A stretch of DNA of 64,000 bases from an uncultured Oscillospiraceae bacterium (GCA_949743955.1 CATJVQ010000036.1:8433-72432); one strand, 5' to 3'. Numbered from the stretch's first letter, positions 23,225 through 47,025 are shown. A program made the numbers and translations. Notes: generated by a model from the letters alone, not told the origin.

Positions 23225-23228
23225 AAGC

Positions 23229-24524: not shown

Positions 24525-24569
24525 TCGCCCCATGGCACTCATCCCGGCCGGCAGTTCCAGTGATTGGAC

Positions 24570-24598: not shown

Positions 24599-24651
24599 CG
24601 ACGTATTATCACTAAGGAATATCAGCCTGAGAGGGAAAGGGCGGTCTGCGG

Positions 24652-26924: not shown

Positions 26925-27508
26925 TCCGCTTACAAGAAACGAAAACGCCGCCGGTTAAAAAACACAGAGTTTACGATTATCTCCTCCAACTGTGTCGGCA
27001 CATTTATTTACCAGGATCTTGGGCTGCAATACCGCACACCCACAGTGGGGCTCACCATCAGTATGCGGGATCTGGTGAAAATGGCCGCGAACCTGCCGGA
27101 ATATATGGAAAAGGATCTGGTAGAGGCTCCGGAGGAAGGGCCTTGTCCAGCCGGTCTGCTGGGGGATGTTCGTGTCAATTTTGTGCACTATAAGAATTTT
27201 GACGAAGGAAAGAAAAAATGGGATGAGCGAAAAAACGGATCCGCTGGGATCGTATTTTCATCATTGGTTCTGAAAAAGATGACTGCGACTATGGAGTTCT
27301 TCAGGCCTTTGAAAAACTCCCCTACCCCAAAGCGGTTCTCACACATGTCGAATACCCGGAGTTTTCCTCCGCTTTCCATATAAAAGGGTTTGGAGAAGGA
27401 AATCCCCTCGGGACACTGACAAATTTTAAGCCGCAGACATGGAGGAGACGGTATATGGATGAATTTGATTATGTCTCTTTTCTGAATGAAGGAGGGAAGC
27501 TGCTGTGA
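26921..27508 (+). pseudogene. DUF1919-family exopolysaccharide protein, two frameshifts
   Basis: Frame switching gives ..LKNTEFTIISSNCVGTFIYQDLG..PT..VHYKNF..W..RKKRIRWDRIF..FDYVSFLN; breaks near 26930 and in the A-run near 27230; start and stop overlap both neighbours. Confidence 0.75.
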
Positions 27509-29451: not shown

Positions 29452-29479
29452 AGCTTTCTCTCCTCTCCGCGCATATACG

Positions 29480-30499
29480 TTAATGATACCGCTTCCATGT
29501 CAGATATACGGCGCTCACCCGGCAGATTGCATAGGTCATTCGATACCATTTCAGATGGAAAAAGAATACAAGCAGTCTTCTTCCCAATGGTCCGCAGACA
29601 TAATTATATTTTATAGCCTGCTGATCCAATCTATTTTCCTGCATTCTGCGGCACAAATCACATTTTTCATGATAAGGCTTTCCATTGCTGGGGTGAAAAA
29701 TATCCCACACCAAAATAAATGTCAGATTATCCAGCACATACGAATAGAACTCTCTTTCCAGCAGAGGCAGCATCTCACCGGCTTCCAGAGTGACATATAT
29801 CTCTTTAAGAAGCCGCATATGATTCTGCGAAAGTCCGGCATGATAACGATGTGACAAAGAGCTGTCGCTCATATGGTAAAAATAAACCGGCCGGAAAATG
29901 TAAAGAACATCCCTTACTTTCATCTGATATTCAAGATTAAAAAGTCTGTCCTCTCCATGGAACAGTTCCGGAGAAAAACGGAGCGCACAGCGGTCAATAA
30001 TGGACTTCCGATATGCTTTTGCCCAAGGTGAAAGAAAGTTTACATTGCCGTTTTCTCGCAGCTGATCCGGCACCAGAATCCGTTTCAACAGGTTCGGTAT
30101 ATATTCCTCTCCAAAACGCATTTTTTCCGCCTCCCCGCCTGCGGAAATAAGCTCCCGCTCTGTCCGGGCGAAGTCAAAGAGGATTAAATCCGCGTCCTCT
30201 CCCGCTATCAGCGCCAGATAGCCGCGGGAAATAACATCGTCCGCGTCCACGAACACGACCCATTCCCCGCTGCATTCGTCAAGCCCGCGGTTGCGTGCGG
30301 CGGATACACCTTGGTTTTTCTGTACAATTAGTTTTATCCGATCATCTATATATTGTTTGCAAATTTGCAGGCTTCCGTCGGTGGATCCGTCGTCAATGAG
30401 GATGAGTTCAAAATCCCGGTACGTGGAATCCAGCACCGAATCGATACAGCGCCGCAGATACAGCTCCGCATTATAAATGGGTATGATGACTGAGATCAC
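29480..30499 (-). CDS. Glycosyltransferase family 2 (paralogue A)
   Basis: Same motifs; N-terminal ~120 aa closely similar to paralogue B. Confidence 0.92.
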   Translation of the reverse strand: MISVIIPIYNAELYLRRCIDSVLDSTYRDFELILIDDGSTDGSLQICKQYIDDRIKLIVQKNQGVSAARNRGLDECSGEWVVFVDADDVISRGYLALIAGEDADLILFDFARTERELISAGGEAEKMRFGEEYIPNLLKRILVPDQLRENGNVNFLSPWAKAYRKSIIDRCALRFSPELFHGEDRLFNLEYQMKVRDVLYIFRPVYFYHMSDSSLSHRYHAGLSQNHMRLLKEIYVTLEAGEMLPLLEREFYSYVLDNLTFILVWDIFHPSNGKPYHEKCDLCRRMQENRLDQQAIKYNYVCGPLGRRLLVFFFHLKWYRMTYAICRVSAVYLTWKRYH

Positions 30500-30531
30500 A
30501 AGCCTTCCCCTCCCCGGGCCGATATGGTCTC

Positions 30532-30560
30532 AGTATAATACAGCTCCCCTCAAAAAGCAA
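30532..30560 (-). promoter_or_regulatory. Sigma-A-type promoter for the minus-strand GT2 pair
   Basis: TTGCTT-17 bp-TATACT about 30 bp upstream of GTG 30499. Confidence 0.55.
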
Positions 30561-30586
30561 CTCCGGCACAGCGGACAGGAGGCATT

Positions 30587-31579
30587 ATGTTTACATTTAT
30601 CGTCACATGCTACCAGCAGGCGGATATGATCCCGCTCGCGCTGGAAAGTGTCAGGTACCAGATTGAGCGCTACGGTCAGGGACAATCCTTCCAGCTCATC
30701 GTCACAGACGACGGATCCACTGACGGCAGCCGCGATGTCATCCGGCGGTGGACAGAAAAAAACCGGCGTCTCTTCGCCGAGGCCGATCTCCTCTTCCAGG
30801 AGGAAAACGCGGGGATCTGCCAAAATTATGTGGACGCGCTGAGGCACGTGCGAGGGGAACGCTTCATCGTCCTCAACGGTGACGATCTGTTCTCTTCCCA
30901 CAGCGTTTTCGCGTTCACAGACAGGCTCGCCGAATATGACATCGTGACTTCCGCCGCCGCTAAATTTACCGGATCAGGCAAGCCTGTCCATGCCCGGCAC
31001 ACAGTTTTAGAAATGGTGCTGCAAAACTTCATCACCGGAAAATCCCTGCATAACGCGGTAAAGCTGGGCTGCCCGATAATGGGATACGCCATCTACCGGA
31101 AATCCCTCCTGACAGAGGATATTTTCGATTTTATCCTGCGCTTCCGGACAGTGAATGACCGAGCCTGTTTTCAAAAAATACTGGATCAAAACGCGGTAAA
31201 AACCTGCTATATCAACCGCCCGATTATTCTGTGCAGAATTTCAGAAAATTCCATTTCCAACTTTAACAGTCCGTCGAGGATTCTGCACAATCAGGAAATT
31301 TCAGATCTGTGCCGGACACAGCGAAAAACAGAAAAGTCATTCCTCTTTCGGTCCCTGCTGTTCTGGCAGGAAAAGTCTATTTCCTTCCGCAAAAGTCCAT
31401 ATGAATTTATACGGTTTCTGCGATTTTTTTCCCCATATTTTATCTTCATATTTTGGATTTACTGCCGAAATTTTCTCTCTATCAAAAAAATGGAACAGGA
31501 GCTTATACATGCCTGCGAAAAAGAATGTGAAACGCACTATAAAAACATATGCACCCGCGCTTCCGGAAGCCTTCTGTAA
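30587..31579 (+). CDS. Glycosyltransferase family 2
   Basis: FIVTCYQQ, VTDDGSTDGS, LNGDDLF; ATG after AGGAGG. Confidence 0.85.
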   Translation: MFTFIVTCYQQADMIPLALESVRYQIERYGQGQSFQLIVTDDGSTDGSRDVIRRWTEKNRRLFAEADLLFQEENAGICQNYVDALRHVRGERFIVLNGDDLFSSHSVFAFTDRLAEYDIVTSAAAKFTGSGKPVHARHTVLEMVLQNFITGKSLHNAVKLGCPIMGYAIYRKSLLTEDIFDFILRFRTVNDRACFQKILDQNAVKTCYINRPIILCRISENSISNFNSPSRILHNQEISDLCRTQRKTEKSFLFRSLLFWQEKSISFRKSPYEFIRFLRFFSPYFIFIFWIYCRNFLSIKKMEQELIHACEKECETHYKNICTRASGSLL

Positions 31580-32944: not shown

Positions 32945-35116
32945 ATGGAAGTACTACTGGTTGGAAACGGTCGGATAACAGAGGCCCTTATTGACCGGCT
33001 GAACAAAAGTGGGGACCGTGTTTATCTGCTGACCGGTCATCGTAATGGCAAATCCTCACAAAAACATGTGTTCGAAAAATATAACTTCTCCTATGAGGAC
33101 GACAGCATAAAGGACATTTTCAAGAGCATCAAGCCGGATGTTACCATTTTTACCGGCGCATGGGACAGTCATTTTGACTGGCAAAAGGCTGAACAGGAAT
33201 CTGTTCGGTACACGACATCGCTCATCAACATCGTGACCGCCTATTCTATACTGCAGCAGGGGCGGTTTGTATATCTCTCGTCTCAGGAAGTGTTCAGCGG
33301 CTCCAGTCCGCAGAACCTGTCGGAATCCTCCCCGACATCACCTAAGGACTTTCGGAGCATGGCAATCTCTCAGGGGGAGGAGATTTGCGCCAATTACCGC
33401 CGCAATCAGGGGCTGGACATTCGGATTCTTCGCTTTGATCATCTCTATTGTGTGCCGGAAAAAGGGCGTCCTGAGGTGGATCCCTGCTTTGCCATGTGCC
33501 TGGAGGCACTCCGCAGCGGGCGCATTTCCGCCAATAACAACGAAGTGTTTTCCATGATCTTTCTCAAAGACGCTGTGGAATTGGCGTATAAGGCCATTGC
33601 AGCGCCAAAGCTGGAGCAGTCCCTCTATCACATTTCCTCTATGGAGGAAATAAGCGCTATGAGGCTCGCCGAGCTGGTGCAGGCGACGATAGGGAAAAAC
33701 ATCCGGATAATGGATTACACATCGGACGATGTGCATCGGCTGATTCTTGACGGCAGCGCCTATCAGGAAGAGTTGGGGATGAAGATCGCCACCCCCTACT
33801 GGGTTGGTGTGGAGCTGGTCGCCCAGTATATGCGGCAGCACAGCGAATCTTTTATTCGTGCCGAGGATGTAGGCGGAGGCCGGTGGACCCGGTTCTGGCA
33901 CAGAACAAAACTGATTTTCTCCGCACTGGTCCCGTATGTAGAGAACATCGTCTGTTTTCTGATTTTCTTTTTTCTAAACAGTATGGCTGCCGGCAGCGGT
34001 TTTTTCCAGCGCCTAGACTTTTTCCTGCTGTATGTGCTGCTCTTTGCCGTCATCCACGGCCAGAAGCAGGCGATCCTCTCCGCTTTGCTGGCCGTGGCAG
34101 GGTTCTGTGTGCAGGAAATGGTTACTCGCAGCGGCTTCGAGATCATGCTGGACTATAACACCTATGTGTGGGTGGCCCAGCTGTTTATTGTGGGGCTGGT
34201 CGTAGGGTATCTTAAGGATCAGCTGTACACCGTGCAGCAGGAGAGCCAGGACGAAATCGACTATCTGGAAAAAAGGCTGGCCGACATTGCAGAAATCAAC
34301 GACAGTAACGTGCGGATGAAGCAGAACTTCGAGGCGCAGCTTGTCAATCAGAAGGACAGTCTGGGGAAAATTTACGACATTACATCCAAACTGGAACAGC
34401 AGGCTCCGGAGGAAGTCCTTTTTACCGCCGTGCGGATGATTGCCCGCCTCATGGACTGCGAGAGCGCCGCTGTATATACAGTGGCCAACCGAAGCTATGC
34501 CCGGCTTTTCTCTTCCACATCCGCCGAGGCCCGAAGCCTTGGGAACTCCATCGAATACACCACCATGACGGAAATGTACAGCGATCTGCAGAAACGGCGG
34601 GTCTACATCAACAAAACGATGGAGAACAAATTCCCACTGATGGCCAGCGCCGTGTACTATGAGGATTCCATGCAGCTTATCTTCATGCTCTGGGGGATTC
34701 CCTGGCAGCGCATGACCATGGCGGAAGCCAACCGTCTGGCGGTCATCGGGCAGATGGTGCAGTCCGCTGTCGTGCGGGCCAACCGGTATCTGGAAGCGCT
34801 GAGCAACGAACGGTATGTCGAGGGCACCCGGCTGATGGCGGCGGACGCTTTCCGCCAGCTGGCCAGCGCGTTTCTCAGCGCACAGGAAAAGGGGCTCACC
34901 GAATGCGTCCTGCTGGAGGTGGAGACGAATGGGGACTGTGTGAGTGCGGCGGCCGCCCTAAACGGATATACCCGCCAGTCGGACTATATGGGGGCGGTGA
35001 AGAAGGGGGTCCTGTCCGTTCTACTCTCGAATACAAACAGCGAAAATGCCGCATTCGTAATGAATCGGTTCCGCTCCGCCGGATATGAGAGCCATCTGGT
35101 TCGGGAGATCGTATGA
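32945..35116 (+). CDS. pelD: PelD-like protein: degenerate SDR/epimerase domain + TM bundle + GAF + degenerate GGDEF with RxxD
   Basis: Epimerase-like N-terminus, four TM segments (FLLYVLLFAVIHG..), GAF-like region, C-terminal RQSD; first gene of a pelD-E-A-F-G order. Confidence 0.7.
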   Translation: MEVLLVGNGRITEALIDRLNKSGDRVYLLTGHRNGKSSQKHVFEKYNFSYEDDSIKDIFKSIKPDVTIFTGAWDSHFDWQKAEQESVRYTTSLINIVTAYSILQQGRFVYLSSQEVFSGSSPQNLSESSPTSPKDFRSMAISQGEEICANYRRNQGLDIRILRFDHLYCVPEKGRPEVDPCFAMCLEALRSGRISANNNEVFSMIFLKDAVELAYKAIAAPKLEQSLYHISSMEEISAMRLAELVQATIGKNIRIMDYTSDDVHRLILDGSAYQEELGMKIATPYWVGVELVAQYMRQHSESFIRAEDVGGGRWTRFWHRTKLIFSALVPYVENIVCFLIFFFLNSMAAGSGFFQRLDFFLLYVLLFAVIHGQKQAILSALLAVAGFCVQEMVTRSGFEIMLDYNTYVWVAQLFIVGLVVGYLKDQLYTVQQESQDEIDYLEKRLADIAEINDSNVRMKQNFEAQLVNQKDSLGKIYDITSKLEQQAPEEVLFTAVRMIARLMDCESAAVYTVANRSYARLFSSTSAEARSLGNSIEYTTMTEMYSDLQKRRVYINKTMENKFPLMASAVYYEDSMQLIFMLWGIPWQRMTMAEANRLAVIGQMVQSAVVRANRYLEALSNERYVEGTRLMAADAFRQLASAFLSAQEKGLTECVLLEVETNGDCVSAAAALNGYTRQSDYMGAVKKGVLSVLLSNTNSENAAFVMNRFRSAGYESHLVREIV

Positions 35117-36078
35117 TGAACTGGGGGTTGGACATGCGGGCATTTCTCCTGCTGTGTCTTATTAATTTGATTGCCGCTCTCCTCTATCTGCTGGTGGGAG
35201 CGCTGATTGTCTCTCCTGCCCAAACCCGGAAAGAACGGAAGGAGGGTATAGAAGTCCGGCACGACAACCGGCGCACCTATCTGCTGCGGTTTCTGGTCAT
35301 GGTTCTGTGCCCGGTGGTGGGGCCGCTCTTTTTCTTCTTCTCCTATCTGCTGTTCCGGATTCCACTGTGGACACAGCCTGATCTCGAGGATGTTGTTTTC
35401 AGTAAGGAGCGTGTAAAAACCCGCATGAAAGCGGATGAGGAACGCGAGAGGAACATGGTCCCGCTGGAAGAGGCCATGTTCGTCAATGAGAGCCGGGATC
35501 TGCGTCTCATCATGATGAACACCATCCGGGGGGATGTGCATGCCGCGTTGGGTGTCATCATGCTCGCGCTGGACAGTGAGGACTCCGAGACCGCTCATTA
35601 TGCAGCGTCCGTCCTGAGCGGCGAGCTGGATACATTCCGCGCCAATGTGAACCGGCTCTCGAGAATCATCCGGGAGGAGACGAATGAGGAGACAGCGGCC
35701 GAGCTGGAGCTTATCCCGTATATGGATGATTTTCTCCGCCAGAACGTATTCTCACAGCTGGAACAGAAAAAGCTGACGAAAATTCTGGAGGAAACAATCC
35801 AATCTCTTTACGAAAAAAATGCTTCTCTTCTGACACCGGAGCATTACGAAAGTGTCTGTCTGCGGCTTATGAAGATTTCAGATTATACCAGCGCGGAAAG
35901 ATGGTGCCTGTGCCTGACCGAACAGTATCCGGATACGCTGGCCTCCTTCACCTGCCGCCTGAAGCTCTATTTTTCCACAAGGAACCGGGACGCTTTTCTT
36001 CAAACACTGTCCGCGCTCAAGCAGTCGAATGTCGTTATTGACAGCGAGACACTGGAGCTTATCCGAATTTTCAGTTAA
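35113..36078 (+). CDS. pelE: PelE-like membrane protein with helical/TPR-like C-terminus
   Basis: Two N-terminal TM segments, VPLEEA, AL.SEDSETAHYAAS; position between pelD and pelA. Confidence 0.62.
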   Translation: MMNWGLDMRAFLLLCLINLIAALLYLLVGALIVSPAQTRKERKEGIEVRHDNRRTYLLRFLVMVLCPVVGPLFFFFSYLLFRIPLWTQPDLEDVVFSKERVKTRMKADEERERNMVPLEEAMFVNESRDLRLIMMNTIRGDVHAALGVIMLALDSEDSETAHYAASVLSGELDTFRANVNRLSRIIREETNEETAAELELIPYMDDFLRQNVFSQLEQKKLTKILEETIQSLYEKNASLLTPEHYESVCLRLMKISDYTSAERWCLCLTEQYPDTLASFTCRLKLYFSTRNRDAFLQTLSALKQSNVVIDSETLELIRIFS

Positions 36079-36107
36079 ACAATAATCAGCGTGATGGGAG
36101 GAATCGG

Positions 36108-37958
36108 ATGATATCGCGCCGCAATTTTTTTTCCATTGCTGCTCTCATGCTGGTGATTTTTTTCATGTTTCAGTTTACCAATGTGGCACTGGAATTATGG
36201 AATCACTACGAAGAGAATGCCTACGCTGTGGATCTTGCCTCTCTGCCTGGGGAAAACGGTGCCTATACTCTGAATACCTCCGGCGAAGACACTCTCTGGG
36301 GGAATGTGCGTCCCACCGTGACTTTTATCGGCGAAAGGGATAGTGCGATGGGGCAGGTGGTATCCAACTGGGCCGCTTACACAAAGCGCCGTCTGTCCGT
36401 TCAGCCAGCGCTGCAGGGCTATGTACTGGAGGATACCATACCGGAATTTCTTGTTCTGGACGCTGCCAGCATGGACTGGGATGAGAATGCCTGCCAGCTC
36501 CTTCTGGAGTGGGCAGAAAAGGGGTGCGACCTCGTGTTTGGCAGTCTGCCGGCGCCCTTTATCATCCGAGAAATACCCGGCCTGCAGGAACTGTTGGGCA
36601 TCTATGAGATCCGCGCGGATCGCGCCGCCGTGGAAGGACTCCACCTCTATGCGGGATTCTTCCTGGGCGGAGAGGTGATCTACCAGGGGGCTGATGCACA
36701 GGAGAACGAATTGCGGCAGGATCTGGATCTGGATATCCCCTGGTACATCCCCGATATTGGGACAAAGGTCTACATGAAGGGGATCCCTGCCGGCGACGTA
36801 AAAGCGGAAGATCATCCAGCTATCATCTGGCGCAGAAGCCTCAACGGTTCGTTCGTCTTCGCCATAAACGGCAGATACATGGAGGACGCCACCGGGCTGG
36901 GTATCCTCTCCGCGATAGTCTCACAGTCCGGTGTTCTGGATATCTATCCGGTGATCAACGCCCAGAATCTGGTGGTGGCCAACTATCCGGGCTTGGCCAT
37001 GGAGAACGAGGATGTCCTCTCACAGTATTACAGTGCGTCCATGCAGGGGATCTTCCGGGATATCCTGTGGCCGGACATCACCGCGATTTATCATCAGGGA
37101 AAGCTGGGGTTCTCCTGCATGATGGCTCCCCAGTTTGACTACGGGGATTCCAATCTGCCCGATTCGGAATCGTTCGTTTACTACATGAAGCTGCTCAACG
37201 AGCTGAGAGCGGAGGCGGGCATATCCGCTTTTTCCGTGTCGGAGACCCCTATGGCGGAAAAGTTGTTGGAGGATCTCCGTTTTATGGAGCATGAAAATCT
37301 AGGATACCGCTTCACTTCTCTTTATGCCGGGGAGGCCGGTAAAGATATACCGGCAGACGCTCTGCAGGCCATTCCCACTCTGCGTACCGTGGTTTTCCCT
37401 TACGATGGCGGCAGCGAACTCGTCGGCTATCAGAATGAGAGCGTAACCTGGCAGATGGCTGTAGCCGACGGCTTTGGCCATACCTACCGGAGCGATTTTC
37501 GGGTACGCAGTGTCGAAACGGCGCTGGCCTATACCAGTATTCTCGCAGACGTTGCCCGAGCTGTCTATCCCGAGAGTGCCGAAGATACCTGGAACTCCAT
37601 TTCCCAGCGTTTCTCCTCGGATGTGCCTCAATTCTGGCGGGAATTTGAATCGTTCGACGGTACCTCCGTTTCAGAATGCGATGAACGCGTCCGCCGCTTT
37701 CTCTCCCTGGACTATACCTACAAATACGATGGAGAAACTGTCTCTCTGCGCCACAGTGGCGATGGAACGGCATGGTTTATCCTGCGGGTGAACAACCGCC
37801 GGGTCAGATCCGTCGAGGGAGGGACTGTCCGGCGCATTGAAGAGGGTGTGTATCTTATTGGGGCAAAGGAAAAGGATGTGACCATCACTCTGCTCGGCAT
37901 TCGTGCCAATGTGCGGGACGGATACCGTATCGCACCGGAACATGGTGATGCTATTTAA
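36108..37958 (+). CDS. pelA: DUF2194 / PelA(DA)-like putative deacetylase
   Basis: N-terminal TM, YPVINAQ...P region, synteny; catalytic residues not verified. Confidence 0.6.
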   Translation: MISRRNFFSIAALMLVIFFMFQFTNVALELWNHYEENAYAVDLASLPGENGAYTLNTSGEDTLWGNVRPTVTFIGERDSAMGQVVSNWAAYTKRRLSVQPALQGYVLEDTIPEFLVLDAASMDWDENACQLLLEWAEKGCDLVFGSLPAPFIIREIPGLQELLGIYEIRADRAAVEGLHLYAGFFLGGEVIYQGADAQENELRQDLDLDIPWYIPDIGTKVYMKGIPAGDVKAEDHPAIIWRRSLNGSFVFAINGRYMEDATGLGILSAIVSQSGVLDIYPVINAQNLVVANYPGLAMENEDVLSQYYSASMQGIFRDILWPDITAIYHQGKLGFSCMMAPQFDYGDSNLPDSESFVYYMKLLNELRAEAGISAFSVSETPMAEKLLEDLRFMEHENLGYRFTSLYAGEAGKDIPADALQAIPTLRTVVFPYDGGSELVGYQNESVTWQMAVADGFGHTYRSDFRVRSVETALAYTSILADVARAVYPESAEDTWNSISQRFSSDVPQFWREFESFDGTSVSECDERVRRFLSLDYTYKYDGETVSLRHSGDGTAWFILRVNNRRVRSVEGGTVRRIEEGVYLIGAKEKDVTITLLGIRANVRDGYRIAPEHGDAI

Positions 37959-37985
37959 GCCGAACGGCGGAAAGGAGGGGCGCGC

Positions 37986-39437
37986 ATGTGTATCTGCATC
38001 ATTGTAGAAGGATGTTATCCATATGTAGTCGGCGGCGTGTCCAGCTGGGTACACAGCCTGATCCAGTCCTTTCCCGAAATAGAATTTGTCATTCTGACCA
38101 TCGTGTCGAACCGATCCATGCGGGGGAAGTTTGTCTATACGCTGCCGGAAAATGTTTCAGAGGTTTATGAGCTGTATCTGGATGATGTGGACTGGGGCCG
38201 CCAGCACAGGAAACGGATGAACCGCACGGAATATAATGCTCTGCGCAGCCTGCTCCTTGACCAGCACATCGACTGGGAGACACTCTTCAGATACTTCCAG
38301 AATAAGCATGTTTCCATCGACGGACTGCTCATGGGCGAAGATTTCCTGCACGCTGTGGAAGAATTTTATCTCCTTCATTACAGCCAGGTGGTATTCTCGG
38401 ATTTTCTGTGGATGATGCGCTCCATCTATCTGCCGCTGTTTTTCGCACTGAAAATGAAGCTGCCGAAAGCGGATCTCTACCACTGCCTCTGCACCGGTTA
38501 CGCGGGCGTGCTCGGCAGCATGGCCAAGCATCTGTATGGCACTCCCCTGCTGATCTCCGAGCACGGGATCTACACGCGCGAGCGTGAAGAGGAGCTTGTG
38601 AAGGCCAAGTGGGTGCAGGGACTCTATAAAAATGTCTGGATCAACCAGTTTCGGAAGATGTCCCGCCTAGCCTATGAGCGGGCGGATCTCGTGACCAGCC
38701 TGTATGAGCATGCCCGTGTCCTCCAGATTGAACTGGGCTGTCCCGAACAGAAGACACTTGTCACCCCTAACGGCATCCAGGTGGACGCTTTTCAGGATCT
38801 GCCGGGCCGGGTGGAGGAGGATGAAGGAAGAATCAATGTAGGAGCGGTTCTGCGGGTTTCCCCCATCAAGGATGTCAAGACAATGATACAGGCTTTCGGG
38901 TTTGCCAAAGAGCGCGAGCCTGCACTGAAGCTGTGGATCATGGGACCTTGGGAGGAAGACAAGGAGTACGCCGAGGAGTGTTTTGATCTGGTGCGGGACA
39001 TGAATCTTTCCGACGTGGTATTTACCGGGCAGATCAACGTGCGCGATTATCTGGGGCGAATGGATATGACCATCCTCACCAGCATCAGCGAGGGACAGCC
39101 GCTAACGATTCTGGAAAGTTTTGCCGCCCGCAGACCTGTCATTGCCACGAACGTGGGGAACTGTCATGGCCTCATCTTCGGCGAAGGCGACGATTTCGGT
39201 CCGGGAGGCATTATCACACACATCATGAATCTGGAAGAGATTTCCGACGCCATCGTCTATCTGGCCCGCCACCGGGAGGAACGGTTGCAAATGGGGGAAA
39301 ACGGATACCGAAGGGTATCCGCCCGCCACCGTATTGAGCAGATGCGCGAAAACTACCGGCGTATCTATGAGCGTTTCGAACAGGATGGCCAGTATCCGCA
39401 GGCGGGCGAAAAGCAGATTGAGCAGGAGGTGAAATAG
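37986..39437 (+). CDS. pelF: Pel synthase glycosyltransferase (GT4, DUF3492)
   Basis: EGCYPYVVGGVSSW, TGYAG, EHGIYTRERE, PIKDVKT, SISEGQP. Confidence 0.93.
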   Translation: MCICIIVEGCYPYVVGGVSSWVHSLIQSFPEIEFVILTIVSNRSMRGKFVYTLPENVSEVYELYLDDVDWGRQHRKRMNRTEYNALRSLLLDQHIDWETLFRYFQNKHVSIDGLLMGEDFLHAVEEFYLLHYSQVVFSDFLWMMRSIYLPLFFALKMKLPKADLYHCLCTGYAGVLGSMAKHLYGTPLLISEHGIYTREREEELVKAKWVQGLYKNVWINQFRKMSRLAYERADLVTSLYEHARVLQIELGCPEQKTLVTPNGIQVDAFQDLPGRVEEDEGRINVGAVLRVSPIKDVKTMIQAFGFAKEREPALKLWIMGPWEEDKEYAEECFDLVRDMNLSDVVFTGQINVRDYLGRMDMTILTSISEGQPLTILESFAARRPVIATNVGNCHGLIFGEGDDFGPGGIITHIMNLEEISDAIVYLARHREERLQMGENGYRRVSARHRIEQMRENYRRIYERFEQDGQYPQAGEKQIEQEVK

Positions 39438-40898
39438 ATGGCGGGTGTCGGTGTCCGGCTCAACCGTTTTTTCCAGAAGAGGTCCATTACCGCGGGGATT
39501 GCCGGAGTGGTGTACGGTTCCTGCCTGACCGTCGCGCCGATGGTTTTGGTTATCGGCGTCCTACTGCTGATGGAGTGGATTCTGGGGTTCGACACACTCG
39601 ATTATTACACAAGAGAACTCTTTTCCTGCACCATTCTATATATTTTTATTTTCTCTCTTCTCTGTGCCTCCCCATTCAACTCGGTGCTCTCCAAATATAT
39701 GCAGGACGCGATCTTTGAGGAGCGCTTTCAGGATATCCTCCCCTGTTATTATCTGGGGCTCTGGATAAATATCTTTCTCAGTTGTCTGGTGGGGATCCCA
39801 TTCTGCCTGTGGGAGCATTTTATAGGCGGGGTACCGGTGTACTATGTGTTTACCGGCTTCTGTGGCTACATCTCCCTGACACTGGTATTTTACTCGATGC
39901 TCTACCTCTCCATCTGCAAGGATTACGGAAGAATCTCTCTGTTTTTCCTGGTCGGGCTTTTAATCGGTTTTCTGCTCTCCCTGATTCTCCGTTTCTGGGC
40001 TGGATGGGAAATCTCCGAAAGCATGCTCTTTTCTTTGACAGTCAGCTTCTTTCTCATCTCCATTTTTGAATACAGCTCTGTCCGGCGGTATTTTATAGAG
40101 AACAGTAACCGTTTCCTGCCGGTATTGCGGTATTTTAAAAAGTATTGGCATCTGGTAGCTGTCAATTTCTTCTACACATTGGGGCTGTATATACATAACT
40201 TTGTCTTCTGGACAACGGAGCTGCGCATGGTGGTAGCCAAGTCCTTTGTCTGCTGCCAGCCCTACGATATGGCCTCCTGCCTAGCCATGTTCACCAACAT
40301 CTCTGCTACAGTCATCTTCATTGCACGCGTGGAAATGTATTTTCACGATCGGTACAAAGCGTATTCCGAGGCAGTCATCGGCGGGAGGCTGGTGGACATT
40401 CAGTCCACAAAGCGCAAAATGTTTCGGGAAATTGCCAATCAGCTTTTGGATCTGGCGCGCATCCAGTTTATGATTTCTGTCGTGGTCTATCTGTTGTTTG
40501 TCGTGATCCTGCCGCGGTTTGGATTTGCGGGTATGATTATGCGCATTTATCCTTGTCTGGCAGCGGGATACTTCATCCTGTTTCAGGTGTACGCTGAGGT
40601 CCTCTTTTTATACTATTTCAAGGATATGTGGGGGGCTGTGTTTACAACTGTCAGTTTTTTTCTGGTAACGCTTATTGGAGCTCTGATCGCCACGCGTCTG
40701 CCGGAAATCTGGTACGGCATCGGCGTGGTGGTGGGTTCCGCTGTCGGATGGTCTGTCGGATATATGCGCCTGCGCTGGGTGGAGAAGCATATAGACGTTC
40801 AGGTATTCTGCCAGGGAAGGCTGTTAGCCCGGGGCAAAGGAGTGCGTCCCAGCGATCAAGTGTATCAACGGACTGCGGCAGAGCCGCAAGGTAAGTGA
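39438..40898 (+). CDS. pelG: Pel polysaccharide transporter
   Basis: MAGVG..L N-terminus, about 12 TM segments, YD.A..LA; directly after pelF. Confidence 0.9.
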   Translation: MAGVGVRLNRFFQKRSITAGIAGVVYGSCLTVAPMVLVIGVLLLMEWILGFDTLDYYTRELFSCTILYIFIFSLLCASPFNSVLSKYMQDAIFEERFQDILPCYYLGLWINIFLSCLVGIPFCLWEHFIGGVPVYYVFTGFCGYISLTLVFYSMLYLSICKDYGRISLFFLVGLLIGFLLSLILRFWAGWEISESMLFSLTVSFFLISIFEYSSVRRYFIENSNRFLPVLRYFKKYWHLVAVNFFYTLGLYIHNFVFWTTELRMVVAKSFVCCQPYDMASCLAMFTNISATVIFIARVEMYFHDRYKAYSEAVIGGRLVDIQSTKRKMFREIANQLLDLARIQFMISVVVYLLFVVILPRFGFAGMIMRIYPCLAAGYFILFQVYAEVLFLYYFKDMWGAVFTTVSFFLVTLIGALIATRLPEIWYGIGVVVGSAVGWSVGYMRLRWVEKHIDVQVFCQGRLLARGKGVRPSDQVYQRTAAEPQGK

Positions 40899-40909
40899 GG
40901 GGGATGACC

Positions 40910-41281
40910 ATGGAATTGGTTGTCATCATGAGATGCGGCCTTGCCATTGTGGGACTGGTGCTTTTGATTTCTAGTTTCTGGTTCCATGCCGCAAAAAAAA
41001 TGACATCGGATCTGGCGGTAACCTGGTGTCTATTGGGATTTGTGCTGATGGTGGTCGGGATCGTTCCGGCATTGTCCGCGTGGATAGACCGTATCTCCGG
41101 CCAGGCAGGGATCACGCTCCTCTTTGCAGGTGCAGCCTGTCTGGGGGGCGCATTCCGGATATGCCTCATCATTTCCCGCCTGACAACACAAAATCAGGAA
41201 CTGGCGATGCTGGTTTCCCTGCTGCTGGAGGAAAGTGCAGAACGAACAGAGACAGGAGCTGAAAAGGAATACGAGCGATGA
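40910..41281 (+). CDS. DUF2304 small membrane protein (GacJ-like)
   Basis: Three TM segments, C-terminal SRL..QNQELA; ATG 40910 after GAGGGGG. Confidence 0.72.
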   Translation: MELVVIMRCGLAIVGLVLLISSFWFHAAKKMTSDLAVTWCLLGFVLMVVGIVPALSAWIDRISGQAGITLLFAGAACLGGAFRICLIISRLTTQNQELAMLVSLLLEESAERTETGAEKEYER

Positions 41282-42495
41282 AAAAGATCCTGTTTGTTAC
41301 GAATACACTCGGTATCGGCGGCGCGGAGAAGTCTCTGATCGAGCTGCTGCGCCATCTGGATGGATCGGAATATTCCATTGATCTCTATGTGCTGCTGGGT
41401 CGTGGAGAGCTCATGAAACGGGTTCCGGAACATGTCCGTCTCCTGAACCGGAAGGTAGATGGCGGCTCCGTCCTTGACAGCGCCGGACGCTGGGCCCTTA
41501 CGAAGATTGTCTTCGCTGATTTTTTTCGCGGCGGAGCGTATGCAGAAAAGCTCGGCAGTATCCTGCGGGGGCTCTGGCCCATGCTGAAAAAACGGCGTAT
41601 ACAGATAGATAAGCTCCTTTGGTATACGGTATCCGCCGGCGTACAGCGGCTGGACGAAGAGTACGATGTTGCGCTGGCCTGGCTGGAGGGAGGAGCCGCT
41701 TACTTCGCAGCCAAGTATGTGCGGGCCAAAAAAAAGCTGGCGGTCATCCATATCGACTATGAGTGCAGCGGCTATACACGAAGTCTCGATCAGGATTGCT
41801 GGGCGCAGTTTGAGAGGATTTTCACCGTCTCCGAGGAAACACGGGCTTCCTTTCTGCGCGTCTATCCGGAGTATGCAGAGAAGCTCAGCATCCTGCCCAA
41901 TCTCATCAATCAGGAGGAAATCCGCCGCCGTGCGCTGGAGGCGGAAGGCTTTTCTGATGGTTATTCAGGGGTGCGCCTGCTGACCGTGGGGCGCCTCACC
42001 TACCAAAAGGCGCTGGATATCTCTATCGACGCCATGAAACTTCTCCTAGATGCCGGCTACAAAGCCCGCTGGTACGTGCTGGGGGAAGGGATTGCACGGG
42101 AACGGTTACAGAAAAAAATAACGGCGCTTGGACTTTCAAAGGATTTTTTGCTGCTGGGAACCGTGGAAAACCCCTATCCCTACTATGTGCAGGCGGATAT
42201 CTTCATTCACGCCACACGCTTTGAGGGCAGGAGTGTCGCCGTGCAGGAGGCACAGACACTCGGCTGCGCAGTGATTGTTTCCGACACAGCCGGCAATCAT
42301 CAGCAGGTTTCTCACAATAAAGACGGCCTCCTGTGCGCTCTCGATCCGAAGGACATCGCAGTGAGCATTGCGCTTCTTATCAGCGATTCAGAAAAGCGTA
42401 AACGCCTTGGAGACACCGCAATGGCAAAAAAAATGCCCACATCGCAGGACATCGGTGAACTGCTTGAATTGCTGAATGGAGGGGATCTATTATAG
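41278..42495 (+). CDS. Glycosyltransferase family 4
   Basis: GGAEKSL, VGRLTYQK, NPYPY, EG..V.V.EA. Confidence 0.9.
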   Translation: MKKILFVTNTLGIGGAEKSLIELLRHLDGSEYSIDLYVLLGRGELMKRVPEHVRLLNRKVDGGSVLDSAGRWALTKIVFADFFRGGAYAEKLGSILRGLWPMLKKRRIQIDKLLWYTVSAGVQRLDEEYDVALAWLEGGAAYFAAKYVRAKKKLAVIHIDYECSGYTRSLDQDCWAQFERIFTVSEETRASFLRVYPEYAEKLSILPNLINQEEIRRRALEAEGFSDGYSGVRLLTVGRLTYQKALDISIDAMKLLLDAGYKARWYVLGEGIARERLQKKITALGLSKDFLLLGTVENPYPYYVQADIFIHATRFEGRSVAVQEAQTLGCAVIVSDTAGNHQQVSHNKDGLLCALDPKDIAVSIALLISDSEKRKRLGDTAMAKKMPTSQDIGELLELLNGGDLL

Positions 42496-42518
42496 AAAAG
42501 AAAGAGCTTTTAATCATT

Positions 42519-43262
42519 ATGCCCGCCCACAATGAAGAAGCGAACCTTCCAGGTGTTCTCGATTCGCTGGAGGAATGCGGGATCCCCGCCATTGCAGATG
42601 TGTTGATTATTAACGACGCTTCGACGGACGCTACCCCGGGGATTATCCGTGCACGCGGATATCGGATGGTTACAAATGTATTTTGTTTGGGGTATGGCGG
42701 TGCAATCCAGGTGGGGTATAAATACGCCGTCCGGTATGGCTACCAGTATGTGATCCAGATGGATGCGGACGGGCAGCACGATCCCTGCAATGTCCCAGTG
42801 ATCTACGGCCGCCTTCTCGAGGAGGATGCCGGAGGACCTCCTGATATTGTGCTGGGTACACGGTATCTGGAGGGAAGCCATTCTTTTCCTCTTTCGCTGC
42901 CCAAGCGGATGGCCCACCGGCTGTTCCGGTTTTTGATTCGCCTGCTGTCGGGACATACTGTCTCCGATCCCACGACGGGACTGCAGGGATTGAGCCGCCG
43001 TGCTTTCACCTTTTACGCCGGATACGATAACTTTGATGTGAAATATCCGGACGCCAACATGCTCATCCAGATGCTGCTCCTCCATTTTCGCATGGTGGAG
43101 GTTCCGGCCGTGATGCATGCGCGTACAGCGGGAAAGAGCATCCATTCCGGACTGCGCCCGCTGTGGTATATGATTCGCATGCTGTTCAGCACACTGGCCA
43201 TCGCTTTTCAAATCAATGTCCTCAAAATTGGCGCCGGAGAGAGCCGGCCGCAGATCATTTAG
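42519..43262 (+). CDS. GT2, polyprenol-phosphate glycosyltransferase (DPM synthase/GacI-like)
   Basis: PAHNEE, INDASTD, QMDADGQHDP, SDPTTG; true start probably at 42492 (ATA). Confidence 0.85.
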   Translation: MPAHNEEANLPGVLDSLEECGIPAIADVLIINDASTDATPGIIRARGYRMVTNVFCLGYGGAIQVGYKYAVRYGYQYVIQMDADGQHDPCNVPVIYGRLLEEDAGGPPDIVLGTRYLEGSHSFPLSLPKRMAHRLFRFLIRLLSGHTVSDPTTGLQGLSRRAFTFYAGYDNFDVKYPDANMLIQMLLLHFRMVEVPAVMHARTAGKSIHSGLRPLWYMIRMLFSTLAIAFQINVLKIGAGESRPQII

Positions 43263-43277
43263 AAAAGGAGCTGCTAT

Positions 43278-45578
43278 TTGAATATCGTCGATACCCTGCA
43301 CTGGCTTGCCGAATATTTTAAGGTCCTCTCCGGCTTCCTTCTTCTGGTTTTTGTGTGGCCCCATATCGTGTTTAAAAAACATCTGAACGGAGAGGGTATT
43401 ATCTACCGTTTCTGTTTCTGTATCTCAGTCCAGACAGTGCTCATCTCCACTGTCGTGCTGGGACTGGGGCTCTGCCATATTCTGAACCCCTGGAGTGTCC
43501 GCGCAGTGTTTTATGGCATCCCGCTGATTGTTCTGTGTAAAAGGGCCAAACCGACTGAAGAGAAGATCGCGGCATTCTGCCGGGCACTGTCCTTCAGTTA
43601 TACCGCCATACAGCTCAAGCAGTTTTTCCGGACTGCCAGCGGAAAAATAAAGCGGCTCTGGCAGATCATGCGCCCCCATATACTGGAGTATCTGGGATTG
43701 GGCGTGCTTCTGATCTACGCACAAGTCTTCCTTGTATGGGGATCGTTCCAGACTACGTCCTACGGTTTCGGCGATCAGTACGTCCACCACTCCTGGATTT
43801 ACGGTCTGAAAGAGGGAATCGCCTTTTCCGGAGGCATCTATCCGGAAGCGATGCATTGCCTCATCTATGCCATTCATATTCTGTTCGATGTGCGGACATA
43901 CTCTCTCATGCTGCTTTTCGGCAGTATACAGGGCATTGTCTTTCTGATTTCTGCCTACTGCTTGCTGAGGGAGTTTTTTCACTGGCGGTATACGCCCCTC
44001 TTCGTCCTTGCGGCCATCATCCTGTTCAATATGCTCACCTGGCGGGAAGGCAGCGGCATGGCACGCCTGCAGTGGACACTTCCCCTTGAGTTCGGGCTTA
44101 CGACACAATTTATCTGCGCTCTGTACCTGCTGCGTTACCTGCGAAAGAAACCGCCGGATGATAATTCCCCCCGGCGGCGCATCTGGAACCGGGATCTGTT
44201 TATTTTCATGATGTCGCTCTCCGCAACGTTTGCCGCCCATTTCTATCCGCTCATCATGGCCTTTTTTATGTGTGCGGGTATCGCCGTGCTTTATCTGAAA
44301 GCGATCTTTTCCCGGGAACGGTTTCTCCCCCTTGTCGCGGCGGTACTGTGCGGGGGGCTGATAGCGCTTGCGCCCATGGCTGCGGCCTTCGCCTCCGGCA
44401 CTCCGCTTGAAAAGTCGTTAAACTGGGCGATGGGCGTCATCGACGGAAACGACAGTGAATACGATGAGGCTCGCGGACGGCTTACAGACGATACTGAAAC
44501 GCAGGACGGCGCTTCGAATACACAGGAATCCGGACTGACAGGAAAAGTCGGCGCGGCCGTTGCTTTCGGCCTGCGGGTTATCCGGCTCGGATATGCAGAG
44601 ATGATCGGTACCGACCGGGGGCAATTCGTCATGAATCTGACAGTGGCGCTCGGCGCCCTCTGGCTGGCGCTCAGATTGATCCCGCGCTTTCTCTCTCCCG
44701 CGCGGCGAGAACAGATAAGAGCTGTGAGTGGTACTTGGCTCGAGGGGTATCTGCCGTTACTCGCCGACTCCGTTGTCTTTATCGTGATGTATATTGCGCC
44801 GTATCTGGGGCTGCCGGAGCTGGTTCTAGGTGTGCGTATGGCCAGCACGGAACGAATCCTTCTTTACGCGGTGGCAGCCATTCCGCTCGATCTTCTCTTT
44901 TTCTCCCTCACTGTATGGATCAAGGCGTCCGTTCTGCATGTGTCCTCCATGCTGTGCCTCGGGATTATCTCCGCCTGGGGATGCAGCCCGGAAAACTATC
45001 ACGGATACCTCTACTGCGAACTAACCCGCTACCGTTCTGAGGTTGCTGTAATGGATGAAATTATCGGTTCCTTCTCCCCGTTCACCTACACAGTCGTCTC
45101 CCCTACAGATGGTCTTTACCATGAAATCGAGACCGGGTGGCATGAGGAGCTCATCGACTTTGTGAAGCAGGCTTCGGGCGAACGGTATTTCCTTCCCACA
45201 GAGCATGTCTTCATCTTTGTCGAAAAACGGCCAATTCAATATGCTCAGACCTACTATTTCCAGGGACCGTCCTGGCTCGCGATGGAGAGGGAGATTCCGG
45301 AAAACTGCACCCAGGCGCCCAATATACTGGCCTCTGAAATTTCTGAAGAAGCTGCCCTGTCAGCGCTTGAGGATTTTTCCAATCCGTTCTCATTCTATAA
45401 AGAACCCGAGAGCCGCACGATTGTTGAATCCAAGGCGTACGCCTGGTGCCAGCGCTTCTGGCAGCTCTATCCGCATGAGATGGACGTCTATTATGAGGAT
45501 GATGATTTTGTCTGCTACTACTTCCGGCAGGAACCCAATTCGCCGTATAACCTGGCGCTCTCCCCAAAAGAGGAATAA
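43278..45578 (+). CDS. Large polytopic membrane protein, possible GT-C-type transferase
   Basis: TTG start after AAAGGAG; many TM segments, early extracellular loop with GDQYVH, soluble C-terminal domain. Confidence 0.55.
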   Translation: MNIVDTLHWLAEYFKVLSGFLLLVFVWPHIVFKKHLNGEGIIYRFCFCISVQTVLISTVVLGLGLCHILNPWSVRAVFYGIPLIVLCKRAKPTEEKIAAFCRALSFSYTAIQLKQFFRTASGKIKRLWQIMRPHILEYLGLGVLLIYAQVFLVWGSFQTTSYGFGDQYVHHSWIYGLKEGIAFSGGIYPEAMHCLIYAIHILFDVRTYSLMLLFGSIQGIVFLISAYCLLREFFHWRYTPLFVLAAIILFNMLTWREGSGMARLQWTLPLEFGLTTQFICALYLLRYLRKKPPDDNSPRRRIWNRDLFIFMMSLSATFAAHFYPLIMAFFMCAGIAVLYLKAIFSRERFLPLVAAVLCGGLIALAPMAAAFASGTPLEKSLNWAMGVIDGNDSEYDEARGRLTDDTETQDGASNTQESGLTGKVGAAVAFGLRVIRLGYAEMIGTDRGQFVMNLTVALGALWLALRLIPRFLSPARREQIRAVSGTWLEGYLPLLADSVVFIVMYIAPYLGLPELVLGVRMASTERILLYAVAAIPLDLLFFSLTVWIKASVLHVSSMLCLGIISAWGCSPENYHGYLYCELTRYRSEVAVMDEIIGSFSPFTYTVVSPTDGLYHEIETGWHEELIDFVKQASGERYFLPTEHVFIFVEKRPIQYAQTYYFQGPSWLAMEREIPENCTQAPNILASEISEEAALSALEDFSNPFSFYKEPESRTIVESKAYAWCQRFWQLYPHEMDVYYEDDDFVCYYFRQEPNSPYNLALSPKEE

Positions 45579-45666
45579 ACTAGGCGGCAGATCGGCACAC
45601 CGCTGTGGAGTCCTCTGGCTGACTCTTCTGATCATTCTGCTTCTTGCCGTTGGAGGGATCGTGGAA

Positions 45667-46971
45667 ATGCGCCGGGTCCGTGTGAGCGTACAGCCGTTTA
45701 CAGAGTCGAACCGCTTCTTAAAGAATCCGAACCGGGGCTTCTATTATATTTACGGATTCTATATCACAGACAATGCCGTCGATTATGCCTCTCAGGTAGA
45801 GGATTTTTACAGCCGGGACACGGACACAACATTGGCGCTGGTGGAAATCAATTTACAGGAATACCGAACCGGACCTGTGAGCGCGGCGGGAATGGAAAAT
45901 ATCGAAGCTCTGTTTCATGCCCTGTCAGCAGGCGGAAAGCGATTGATCGTCCGCTTTCTCTATGACTGTGAGGGAAAGAATCCCATCGTCGAACCGGATC
46001 GGATGAGCATCATTCTGGGACATATCCAGCAGATGGGACCCATCCTGCAAAAATATGAAAGGGACATTTTTACTTTGCAGGGCCTCTTTGTAGGCGACTG
46101 GGGAGAGATGCACAATACCCGGTATGAGTCGGATGAGGATTTCCAGATTTTAGCCCAGGCGCTGGCCCGTGCAGCCGGGCCCGGCAATTTTCTCTCCGTA
46201 CGGACCCCGGCACAGTGGCGGGTGATCACACTGCGGGGAAGGAATATCCCGCTGGCTTCTCAGATCGGACTGTTTAACGATGGAATTCTTGGCAATGACA
46301 TCGACCTTGGCACCTACGATATGGCCTATCAGGGAGCAGAACGGCGGACTCGTGAGCAGGAGCTGATCTTTCAGAATGAACTGTGCGCTCGTGTTCCCAA
46401 TGGGGGCGAGGTCGTTATCAATAATCCTTATAATGATTTTGAAAACGCGGCGCGCGATCTGGCCGCTATGCGTGTCACCTACCTCAATAAGGACTATGAT
46501 GCACAGGTATTCTCCAAATGGGCCGATACCGTGGTCTCCCGCAAAGGATGTTTTTCCGGAATGGACGGCCTGTCCTATATGGAGCGCCGTCTGGGGTACC
46601 GGCTGCTGGTGGACAATGTGAAAGCTGTCCGGCATTCTCTCCGGCAGTATATTTCGGTGGATGTGGATTTCCGTAATGCGGGATTTGCCCCGCTCTATAC
46701 ATCGCCGGAGCTCCTTTTCGTGCTGCGGGACGAAGAGAATGCCTCTGTCTGGTCGTCTCCGGCTGTACACTATCTGGAGGATCTGCGCGGCGGTACCGAC
46801 GCTGTCCATACTGTCAGCATTAAAATTCCGCTGGATGGGCTTCAAAAAGGTTCCTACCGCCTGTATCTTTCTTTGACAGACCCCGATTCCGAAGACCCCA
46901 TCCTTCTGGCCAATACGCAGGACTGCGGGCCGGACGGATATCTTCTGGGAAAAATAGAGAGACTATTTTGA
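45667..46971 (+). CDS. DUF4874/DUF4832-domain protein (putative glycan-active)
   Basis: NPNRGFY near the N-terminus, RLGYR...N.GFAP.Y Ig-like C-terminus; ATG 45667 has SD GGAGGG, but a hydrophobic segment lies just upstream in frame. Confidence 0.65.
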   Translation: MRRVRVSVQPFTESNRFLKNPNRGFYYIYGFYITDNAVDYASQVEDFYSRDTDTTLALVEINLQEYRTGPVSAAGMENIEALFHALSAGGKRLIVRFLYDCEGKNPIVEPDRMSIILGHIQQMGPILQKYERDIFTLQGLFVGDWGEMHNTRYESDEDFQILAQALARAAGPGNFLSVRTPAQWRVITLRGRNIPLASQIGLFNDGILGNDIDLGTYDMAYQGAERRTREQELIFQNELCARVPNGGEVVINNPYNDFENAARDLAAMRVTYLNKDYDAQVFSKWADTVVSRKGCFSGMDGLSYMERRLGYRLLVDNVKAVRHSLRQYISVDVDFRNAGFAPLYTSPELLFVLRDEENASVWSSPAVHYLEDLRGGTDAVHTVSIKIPLDGLQKGSYRLYLSLTDPDSEDPILLANTQDCGPDGYLLGKIERLF

Positions 46972-46986
46972 GTGCTTCAAAACATA

Positions 46987-47025
46987 AAGAATACCCCTCC
47001 GGAATCCTTCCGAAGGGGTATTCTT
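46987..47025. terminator. Bidirectional terminator at the right end of the polysaccharide island
   Basis: 12-bp inverted repeat AAGAATACCCCT/AGGGGTATTCTT. Confidence 0.8.

Follow-up and report, generated by a model that had tools for sequence, protein, structure and literature searches.

A pel operon of gut Clostridia with a putative three-component extracytoplasmic glycosylation module

Pel is among the most widespread biofilm polysaccharides and is thought to be a linear, partly de-N-acetylated polymer of its monomer, N-acetylgalactosamine (GalNAc). In a different kind of pathway, described from streptococci and mycobacteria, a family 2 glycosyltransferase (GT2) works with a DUF2304 protein and a transferase of the GT-C fold; in the mycobacterial PpgS/Rv3632 system, that GT-C transferase is Rv3779. 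The DUF2304 proteins support the GT2 enzymes: GacJ binds and stimulates GacI, and Rv3632 stimulates PpgS (Rush et al. 2017, 10.1101/180810). We analyzed a stretch of 64,000 nucleotides from an uncultured Oscillospiraceae bacterium (GCA_949743955.1, CATJVQ010000036.1:8433-72432; the whole stretch is called the window below), in which a pel operon of the Gram-positive type continues past pelG into genes for a DUF2304 protein, a family 4 glycosyltransferase (GT4), a DPM1-like GT2, a 766-aa polytopic membrane protein and a DUF4874/DUF4832 protein. An initial annotation, made from the sequence alone, had read these additional genes as a GacI/GacJ/GacL-like module. We find it fairly likely that the operon represents a distinct Gram-positive Pel lineage with a built-in, three-component extracytoplasmic glycosylation system acting on a Pel-like polymer, and the bacterium probably makes a branched polymer of this kind.

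The GT-C-fold protein and its linkage to pel

The 766-aa protein has more than 400 homologues, all of them unnamed, in Oscillospiraceae and Lachnospiraceae. It gave no match to Pfam, NCBIfam or PDB sequences, either as a single sequence or as a 45-member profile; one member of the family matched DUF6541 at 1.3e-4. An AlphaFold2 model was built on the 45-sequence alignment (predicted local distance difference test score, pLDDT, 87.3; predicted template-modeling score, pTM, 0.89) and compared with the PDB by Foldseek, which had been set beforehand as the test of the claim that this protein is GT-C-like. The top 22 matches were all GT-C enzymes (probability 0.99–1.00, E 4.5e-6 to 1.7e-2), among them STT3 from yeast, human and dog, archaeal AglB, PglB, ArnT, the DPY19 C-mannosyltransferase and Pmt1-Pmt2. 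From match 23 on, the matches were unrelated transporters with E > 0.1. The claim therefore held.

The distribution of charges and of conserved residues fits this fold. Loop 87–134 contains 11 Lys/Arg and 2 Asp/Glu, because of which it is predicted to be cytoplasmic; the next loop carries D166 and a single Lys/Arg. These charges place D166 at the start of an outside loop with two short helices after it, as is the catalytic Asp in GT-C enzymes, making it a candidate active-site residue. The C-terminal domain (residues 570–766) is acidic, with 34 Asp/Glu against 13 Lys/Arg, and would be extracytoplasmic in this topology; the GT-C core is preceded by three additional helices. When the window protein was aligned with relatives from other Clostridia families, D166, H170, W173, Y188, P189, R263, E271, H321, P366, S380, R520, H622, E649 and K650 were invariant down to 21–27% identity. 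The protein thus combines the structural matches of a GT-C-type transferase (Foldseek matches 1–22) with an invariant acidic residue, D166, in its predicted first outside loop, and it establishes a new GT-C sequence family whose candidate active site is clear.

Natural fusions bear on the same topology. The GT-C is joined to a DUF4874/4832 domain in two protein clusters with 43 and 18 sequences (fusion proteins P0037 and P0074). Its C-terminus (…YYFRQEPSSPYNLG) continues directly into the hydrolase domain (…FTESAQYLQNPNRGFY), which has lost its own membrane anchor. This arrangement would put the C-terminal domain of the GT-C outside the cell, beside the hydrolase. A programmed frameshift that fuses the two proteins in the present genome was considered and rejected, because the shifted frame keeps the transmembrane anchor, which would leave the hydrolase on the wrong side of the membrane, whereas the natural fusions drop it.

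In order to follow the gene across species, we replaced an even sample of 399 Clostridia genomes, whose 9 matches were too sparse for co-occurrence, with a pattern scan in which each species was represented by one genome. The scan returned 308 stretches encoding a GT-C relative, mostly from Lachnospiraceae and Oscillospiraceae, and locus counts were made on the best 80 of the 308 with 10-kb flanks, using tblastn and hidden Markov models built from the loci. Among these best 80 loci, linkage of the GT-C to pel is near-obligate. The pelF/pelG genes lie beside the GT-C gene in 72 of the 80, all from different species, and the two are on the same strand in 70 of these 72; co-occurrence with pelFG had also been set beforehand as a check, and it came out in favor. 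Six of the eight loci without pel end at contig ends; the remaining two (L065 and L073) have a full 10 kb of pel-free DNA upstream and just 2–4 kb of DNA downstream. Within the 72 pel loci, the DUF4874/4832 gene is present in 68 (in two copies in 38), GT2 in 60, GT4 in 59 and DUF2304 in 54, with all five in 52, and DUF2304 never occurs without GT2.

The commonest order is pelDEAFG, DUF2304, GT4, GT2, (hydrolase paralogue), GT-C, hydrolase. In L017 and L018, the GT-C gene is instead found between pelE and pelA. GT-C relatives at 25% identity occupy that position in three genomes of the class-wide sample, from three other Clostridia families (G235, G207 and G359), and their operons also have GT4, GT2 and a weak DUF2304 match. 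In some loci, the GT-C gene follows pelG directly, without GT2. Five such genomes were searched, and three of them hold a GT2 orthologue elsewhere (57–61% identity), in two cases as part of another pel operon, which reads pelE, divergent GT-C, pelA, pelF, pelG, DUF2304, GT4, GT2 and whose pelD end lies beyond the fetched stretches. Two pel operons in one genome were seen as L058 with L092 (Lachnospiraceae bacterium M18-1, scaffold KE159609.1, about 12 kb apart) and as L028 with L093; in these pairs, the first operon reads pelDEAFG, GT-C, hydrolase, and the second carries the divergent GT-C at 25–27% identity.

A remote operon from another Clostridia family (L090 4259-19510, in genome G140) appears to be a Pel-like system that lacks PelG, PelD, PelE and PelA and has a full glycosylation module, including a flippase. 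Its order is PelF-like DUF3492-GT4, PhoH-like, an open reading frame (ORF) without a family match, DUF6541-like membrane protein, GT-C, MurJ-like flippase, GT2, DUF2304, HD_5-domain protein, GH114. This content indicates that GT-C, GT2 and DUF2304 remain associated with synthases of the PelF type even between deeply diverged operons.

The dependence of the GT-C on pel runs one way. Of 251 genomes sampled from the window's order, 7 have PelG, and five pel-bearing genomes of this order have no GT-C homologue. None of the 14 sampled members of the window's own family has PelG. In one of the order-mates (L096, genome G612), the downstream genes were scanned and form the published accessory set of CotH, VTC, DUF4956 and diguanylate cyclase/phosphodiesterase genes, and PelD has an N-terminal HD domain; L095 (genome G585) has a matching ORF layout. 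PelF of these two loci is 42–43% identical to that of the window, compared with 76–82% for PelF of the Pseudoflavonifractor and Lawsonibacter operons with GT-C. Vertical inheritance within the window's family appears unlikely, because the family members sampled are without PelG and the order-mates carry another pel lineage; the operon was probably acquired horizontally.

Donor genes, operon layout and the PelA and hydrolase proteins

The GT2 had been annotated as DPM-like, and its best solved relative agrees: the sole PDB sequence match is the Dol-P-Man synthase of P. furiosus (5mlz, 2.8e-5, residues 6–230). It contains the motif MDADGQHDP. The best NCBIfam models are PpgS, a polyprenyl-P-GalNAc synthase (1.2e-15), a Dol-P hexose transferase (5.5e-11) and AglJ (7.1e-10); all scores are far below the cut-offs (57.5 bits against 370 for PpgS) and so indicate the class of the enzyme and not its sugar. 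We propose that it is a polyprenyl-phosphate sugar synthase. The DUF2304 protein, encoded by a single-copy gene in this genome, has three hydrophobic segments, and its frame is open from a GTG at 40895, with ATGs at 40904 and 40910. As a small, three-helix PF10066 protein encoded with a GT2, it belongs to the family of GacJ and Rv3632, in line with its annotation as GacJ-like, and by analogy we propose that it activates the GT2. The nearest solved relatives of the GT4 are the GT4 domain of the capsule polymerase Cps3D (2e-18), PglH (1.7e-9), PglA and TarM; its role may be to lengthen the lipid-linked sugar, or it may work in the cytoplasm on the polymer.

The GT2 has an unusual start. Where relatives have the conserved N-terminus MEKKELLII, the window reads I-I-EKKELLII (ATT at 42489, ATA at 42492); the annotated domain is as claimed, and an ATA stands where relatives have the start ATG. 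This ATA follows a GGAGGGG Shine-Dalgarno sequence by 7 nt and overlaps the TAG stop codon of the GT4 (site 42478–42521), and a start at the first ATG, 42519, would remove the first beta-strand. Because the letters of this region are identical in six independent assemblies, they suggest near-cognate or coupled initiation of the GT2, or strongly reduced expression.

The genes of the operon are listed in Table 1. ORFs, Pfam domains and the hairpin agree with the annotated run of five genes packed 3' of pelG up to the terminator at 46987; all are on the same strand, and their junctions overlap or leave gaps of 15–23 nt. Hairpins within 33000–46980 are only weak, no stronger than chance, and 46987–47025 is the sole strong hairpin-plus-T-tract on the stretch. 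The core has the pelDEAFG order of the Gram-positive Pel operon, also as annotated, with PelF above its NCBIfam cut-off, matches of PelG to PF16933 and of PelA to DUF2194, and an order kept in at least 57 related loci. Among the best 80 loci, pelD orthologues head the same operon in at least 57, and pelE orthologues (44–72% identity) lie between pelD and pelA in related loci. The N-terminal short-chain dehydrogenase/reductase (SDR) domain of the window PelD is degenerate.

Table 1. Positions of the genes and the terminator of the extended pel operon in the window
Feature	Position	Strand	Basis
pelD, N-terminal SDR/epimerase-like domain; first gene of the operon	32945..35116	+	Pfam Epimerase, 6e-13
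pelE	35113..36078	+	position and orthology
pelA-like, PelA_DA homologue, DUF2194	36108..37958	+	DUF2194, 4.2e-20
pelF, cytoplasmic GT4 polymerase with DUF3492	37986..39437	+	NCBIfam PelF equivalog, 358.5 bits (cut-off 100); DUF3492, 3.1e-78
pelG, membrane export component	39438..40898	+	PF16933, E 7.5e-139
DUF2304 small membrane protein	40910..41281, frame open from 40895	+	PF10066, 29.2 bits (cut-off 25.5)
GT4, retaining GT-B	41278..42495	+	Glycos_transf_1, E 5.5e-27
DPM1/PpgS/GacI-like GT2	frame 42489..43262, first canonical ATG 42519	+	PF00535, E 3.4e-16
766-aa GT-C-fold membrane protein	43278..45578, TTG start	+	Foldseek on AlphaFold2 model; no family match
DUF4874 + DUF4832 hydrolase (predicted)	45571..46971, start uncertain	+	Pfam, E 2.9e-43 and 4.9e-50
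Two-way terminator hairpin ending the operon	46987..47025	.	18-pair stem, then T-rich tails

We aligned a profile of PelA orthologues to PelA_DA of B. cereus (9zau_A, E 4.3e-22), the DD and IHGYNH motifs setting the numbering offset at +25. The catalytic residues of the B. cereus enzyme are D262, D263, H350, H354 and H488 (PMC13254593). In the window PelA, D262 corresponds to A291, D263 to N292, H350 to S373 and H488 to Y475, and H354 is deleted, so that each of the five positions required of an active de-N-acetylase is changed or gapped. The window PelA contains no HxxxH or DD motif, and no histidine is 95% conserved among 65 PelA orthologues. Because the catalytic and metal-binding residues are replaced and no histidine is conserved, the PelA proteins of this lineage are most likely pseudo-deacetylases without de-N-acetylase activity. 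If so, the polymer would be modified mainly by grafting and not by removal of N-acetyl groups.

The last gene had been counted in the Gac-like module, and it is better placed with a known type of Pel accessory hydrolase. Its AlphaFold2 model (pLDDT 90.2) consists of a helix (residues 8–33), a TIM barrel (DUF4874) and a beta-sandwich (DUF4832), and Foldseek matched it to TIM-barrel hydrolases, including beta-amylase and GH35 beta-galactosidases. SIR_1591, a pel-operon enzyme of S. intermedius that disperses Pel aggregates, has the same architecture and structural neighborhood (PMC12345266), and Whitfield et al. (2020, PMC7112168) count DUF4832 genes of streptococci and clostridia among the Pel accessory genes. 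With an N-terminal transmembrane helix, a TIM barrel, a DUF4832 sandwich and a place at the end of a pel operon, the gene product is, as modeled, a membrane-anchored TIM-barrel glycoside hydrolase of the SIR_1591 type. This kinship rests on architecture and fold, since no named Streptococcus homologue was found among its 120 best matches.

Most gene limits were as annotated. The exception is a 588-aa ORF beginning at 45205, which overlaps the GT-C gene by 374 nt; the real start of the hydrolase is thus later and uncertain. Between 45508 and 45661, where a basic tail and the membrane anchor are encoded, the hydrolase frame is free of ATG, GTG and TTG. Candidate starts are the ATGs at 45493, 45499 and 45502, which would overlap the GT-C gene by ~80 nt, or the ATG at 45667, which would leave out the anchor and at which the recorded public copy begins (434 aa, no anchor); in relatives, the hydrolase starts at or near the GT-C stop codon. 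We considered assembly error as the source of the odd starts and rejected it, because independent assemblies from different samples carry identical letters, six for the GT2 and two for the hydrolase. The odd starts are real features of the species.

Proposed pathway and competing explanations

From these genes, we infer the following chemistry. PelF would polymerize a GalNAc-type backbone, which a PelD/E/G complex would export. On the inner side of the membrane, the DUF2304 protein would activate the DPM1-like GT2 to load a sugar onto undecaprenyl phosphate, and the GT4 would possibly add a second sugar, for which N-glycan assembly on dolichyl phosphate in Haloferax offers an analogy. The lipid-linked sugar would then be flipped outward by a flippase encoded by no recognized gene of the operon, in which PelG is the sole polytopic transporter-type gene. 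Outside the cell, the GT-C would transfer the sugar to the emerging polymer with the help of its C-terminal domain and of D166 in the first outside loop, and the membrane-anchored DUF4874/4832 hydrolase would trim or release the product. The side-chain-decorated Pel variant put forward in the initial annotation is supported in particular by the GT-C fold and by the co-occurrence with pelFG.

Several points weigh against this pathway. The operon has no flippase gene of the GtrA/GtcA or Wzx/GacK kinds, and the GtrA family (PF04138) was not found in the genome, which is 98% complete; a MurJ-like flippase gene is present in the remote L090 operon. The GT2 gene is not nearby in 12 of the 72 pel loci, and in 2 of the 5 genomes searched no close orthologue was found. 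The odd starts of the GT2 and the hydrolase are present in every independent assembly seen, and output of the module may be low here. The TM-scores of the GT-C model to solved GT-C structures are modest (0.25–0.42), a range that is usual between GT-C families. Finally, other glycan genes (an ABC-2 transporter, GT2s and a pyruvyl transferase) adjoin the operon and offer a possible alternative acceptor.

These adjoining genes occupy 21627–31579, upstream of a recombinase and of pel, and encode an ABC ATPase, two ABC-2 permeases, a pyruvyl transferase and three GT2 enzymes, two of them on the opposite strand. At 24652–26924, the polysaccharide pyruvyl transferase is paired with a Fer4/F420-dehydrogenase-like protein. 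The same pair lies just downstream of the extended pel operon in 17–22 of the 80 loci, at 47–58% identity (for example L013 15474-17900 and L025 16479-18900), and may provide a further modification of the same or a neighboring glycan.

The alternative that fares best, though we hold it to be unlikely, is that the three-component module is real and its acceptor is not Pel but a pyruvylated ABC-dependent wall polysaccharide, a teichoic acid or a surface protein, the genes lying in the pel operon for co-regulation. It would make use of the ABC-2 transporter, the three GT2s and the pyruvyl transferase upstream in the window, of the pyruvyl transferase pair beside the operon in other loci, and of the GT4, GT2, ABC-2 transporter and pyruvyl transferase genes downstream in L028. 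In the Gac precedent, the decorated polymer is a rhamnan exported by an ABC transporter (Rush et al. 2017, 10.1101/180810), the best Foldseek matches of the GT-C are protein oligosaccharyltransferases, and Whitfield et al. (2020, PMC7112168) interpreted the pel clusters of Roseburia as genes for capsule or teichoic acid. However, the constant neighbor of the GT-C is pel, and the ABC transporter genes of the window have 0–1 homologues in the 80 loci. Insertion of the GT-C between pelE and pelA in several lineages, and its fusion to a Pel-type hydrolase domain, likewise argue for an acceptor of the Pel type.

A further alternative, which we consider improbable, concerns what is transferred. Here, the GT-C would move a larger unit, either an oligosaccharide built by the GT2 and GT4 and passed on en bloc, or the Pel chain itself, which it would attach to a lipid or to an anchor in the wall, and the module would serve anchoring or priming rather than decoration. 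In Haloferax, AglB performs en bloc transfer from dolichyl phosphate, and STT3, AglB and PglB are the best structural matches of the GT-C. The weak AglJ match of the GT2 (7.1e-10) points in the same direction, as does the GT4, whose gene lies between DUF2304 and GT2 and which is related to PglH/PglA-type enzymes acting on lipid-linked glycans; in addition, Gram-positive Pel is not known to have an anchor. However, a phosphoglycosyl transferase is absent, and the GT4 is missing from 13 of the 72 pel loci. Pairs of a DPM1-like GT2 and a DUF2304 protein are known solely as monosaccharide donors (10.1101/180810), and the Pel operon of B. cereus works without any of these genes (PMC7112168).

Equally improbable is that the module is decaying or near-silent in this species, with lost GT2 and hydrolase starts and an undecorated polymer, even if it functions in relatives: the ATA in place of the conserved GT2 ATG, the loss of the first beta-strand from the next ATG, the hydrolase stretch free of canonical starts and the identity of both features in independent assemblies from different samples would fit such a loss, but all frames are full length and free of stops, the upstream hydrolase frame still encodes a good membrane anchor that AlphaFold models as a helix, the position of the ATA 7 nt from GGAGGGG and over the GT4 stop makes coupled, near-cognate re-initiation possible, and the sequence is fixed in the population and not degrading further.

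Returning to decoration of Pel, a fuller version is tentative and, taken as a whole, falls a little short of an even chance: Lachnospiraceae and Oscillospiraceae of the gut would produce a new matrix polymer, a Pel that stays N-acetylated, with PelA as a scaffold or binding pseudo-enzyme, branching outside the cell by the unnamed GT-C family from GacI/GacJ-like donors, flipping by PelG or another protein and, in this species, switching by inversion of upstream DNA. If true, no other exopolysaccharide made and exported by a membrane synthase complex would have been shown before to be glycosylated by a GT-C. Given the roughly 300 stretches that encode the GT-C and its near-constant place in pel operons among the best 80, a large share of gut-commensal Pel may be chemically different, branched and not deacetylated, which would affect adhesion, immune recognition, phage receptors and the hydrolases proposed against biofilms. 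The operon also offers partners that can be tested for the DUF2304 and DUF4874/4832 proteins, both of them poorly understood.

Comparison with described systems

The closest functional parallel is GacI/GacJ/GacK/GacL of Streptococcus pyogenes, which adds the N-acetylglucosamine side chain of the group A carbohydrate (10.1101/180810). It likewise combines a DPM1-like GT2, a DUF2304 protein and a GT-C-fold transferase, and its genes likewise lie in the operon of the polysaccharide that they decorate, the presumed acceptor in the window being of the Pel type. The acceptor of the Gac system is an ABC-exported rhamnan, whereas that of the window would be a synthase-dependent polymer. The window also differs in having no Wzx (GacK) gene, an extra GT4 and a different gene order, and its GT-C belongs to an unnamed family for which Pfam, NCBIfam and PDB profile searches, covering no GacL model, gave no tie to known GT-C families. 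The annotated Gac-like module therefore stands for the DPM1-like GT2, the DUF2304 protein and the GT-C; it does not extend to a flippase, as neither a GacK nor a GtrA gene is present, or to the GT4, which had been included in it and has no Gac counterpart.

In the PpgS (Rv3631)/Rv3632/Rv3779 system of Mycobacterium tuberculosis, which places galactosamine on arabinogalactan, the GT2 makes polyprenyl-P-GalNAc and is stimulated by the DUF2304 protein. Of the NCBIfam models, PpgS matches the window GT2 best, yet the score is far below the cut-off, and organism, acceptor and operon context all differ.

Among Pel systems, pelDEA(DA)FG of B. cereus ATCC 10987 (PMC7112168; PMC13254593) has the same five core genes in the same order. 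In contrast to B. cereus, the PelA of the window is without the Asp-His-His metal site and the catalytic acid, its PelD has a degenerate SDR domain, five extra genes lie 3' of pelG, and its hydrolase is a DUF4874/4832 TIM barrel and not PelA_H-like. Full-text literature searches found no paper linking Pel with a GT-C or with DUF2304. The sole trace was a drawing of the pel loci of Roseburia hominis and R. intestinalis (Whitfield et al. 2020, S7 Fig, PMC7112168), larger clusters with GT1 and GT2 genes that were drawn only and read as capsule or teichoic acid genes. These loci are probably of the same operon type as the window; the GT-C, the DUF2304 pairing and the pseudo-deacetylase went unrecognized there.

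The SIR_1591-1594 pel cluster of S. intermedius (PMC12345266) is also an operon with an SDR-PelD, contiguous accessory genes and a terminal, anchored TIM-barrel + DUF4832 hydrolase. Relative to the CotH/PPP/DUF4956/DUF4832 accessory set of streptococci and clostridia, CotH, VTC and DUF4956 are swapped in the window for DUF2304, GT4, GT2 and GT-C. The operon, experimentally untouched so far, thus combines two known systems, Pel and three-component glycosylation, in an arrangement that is widespread in gut Clostridia.

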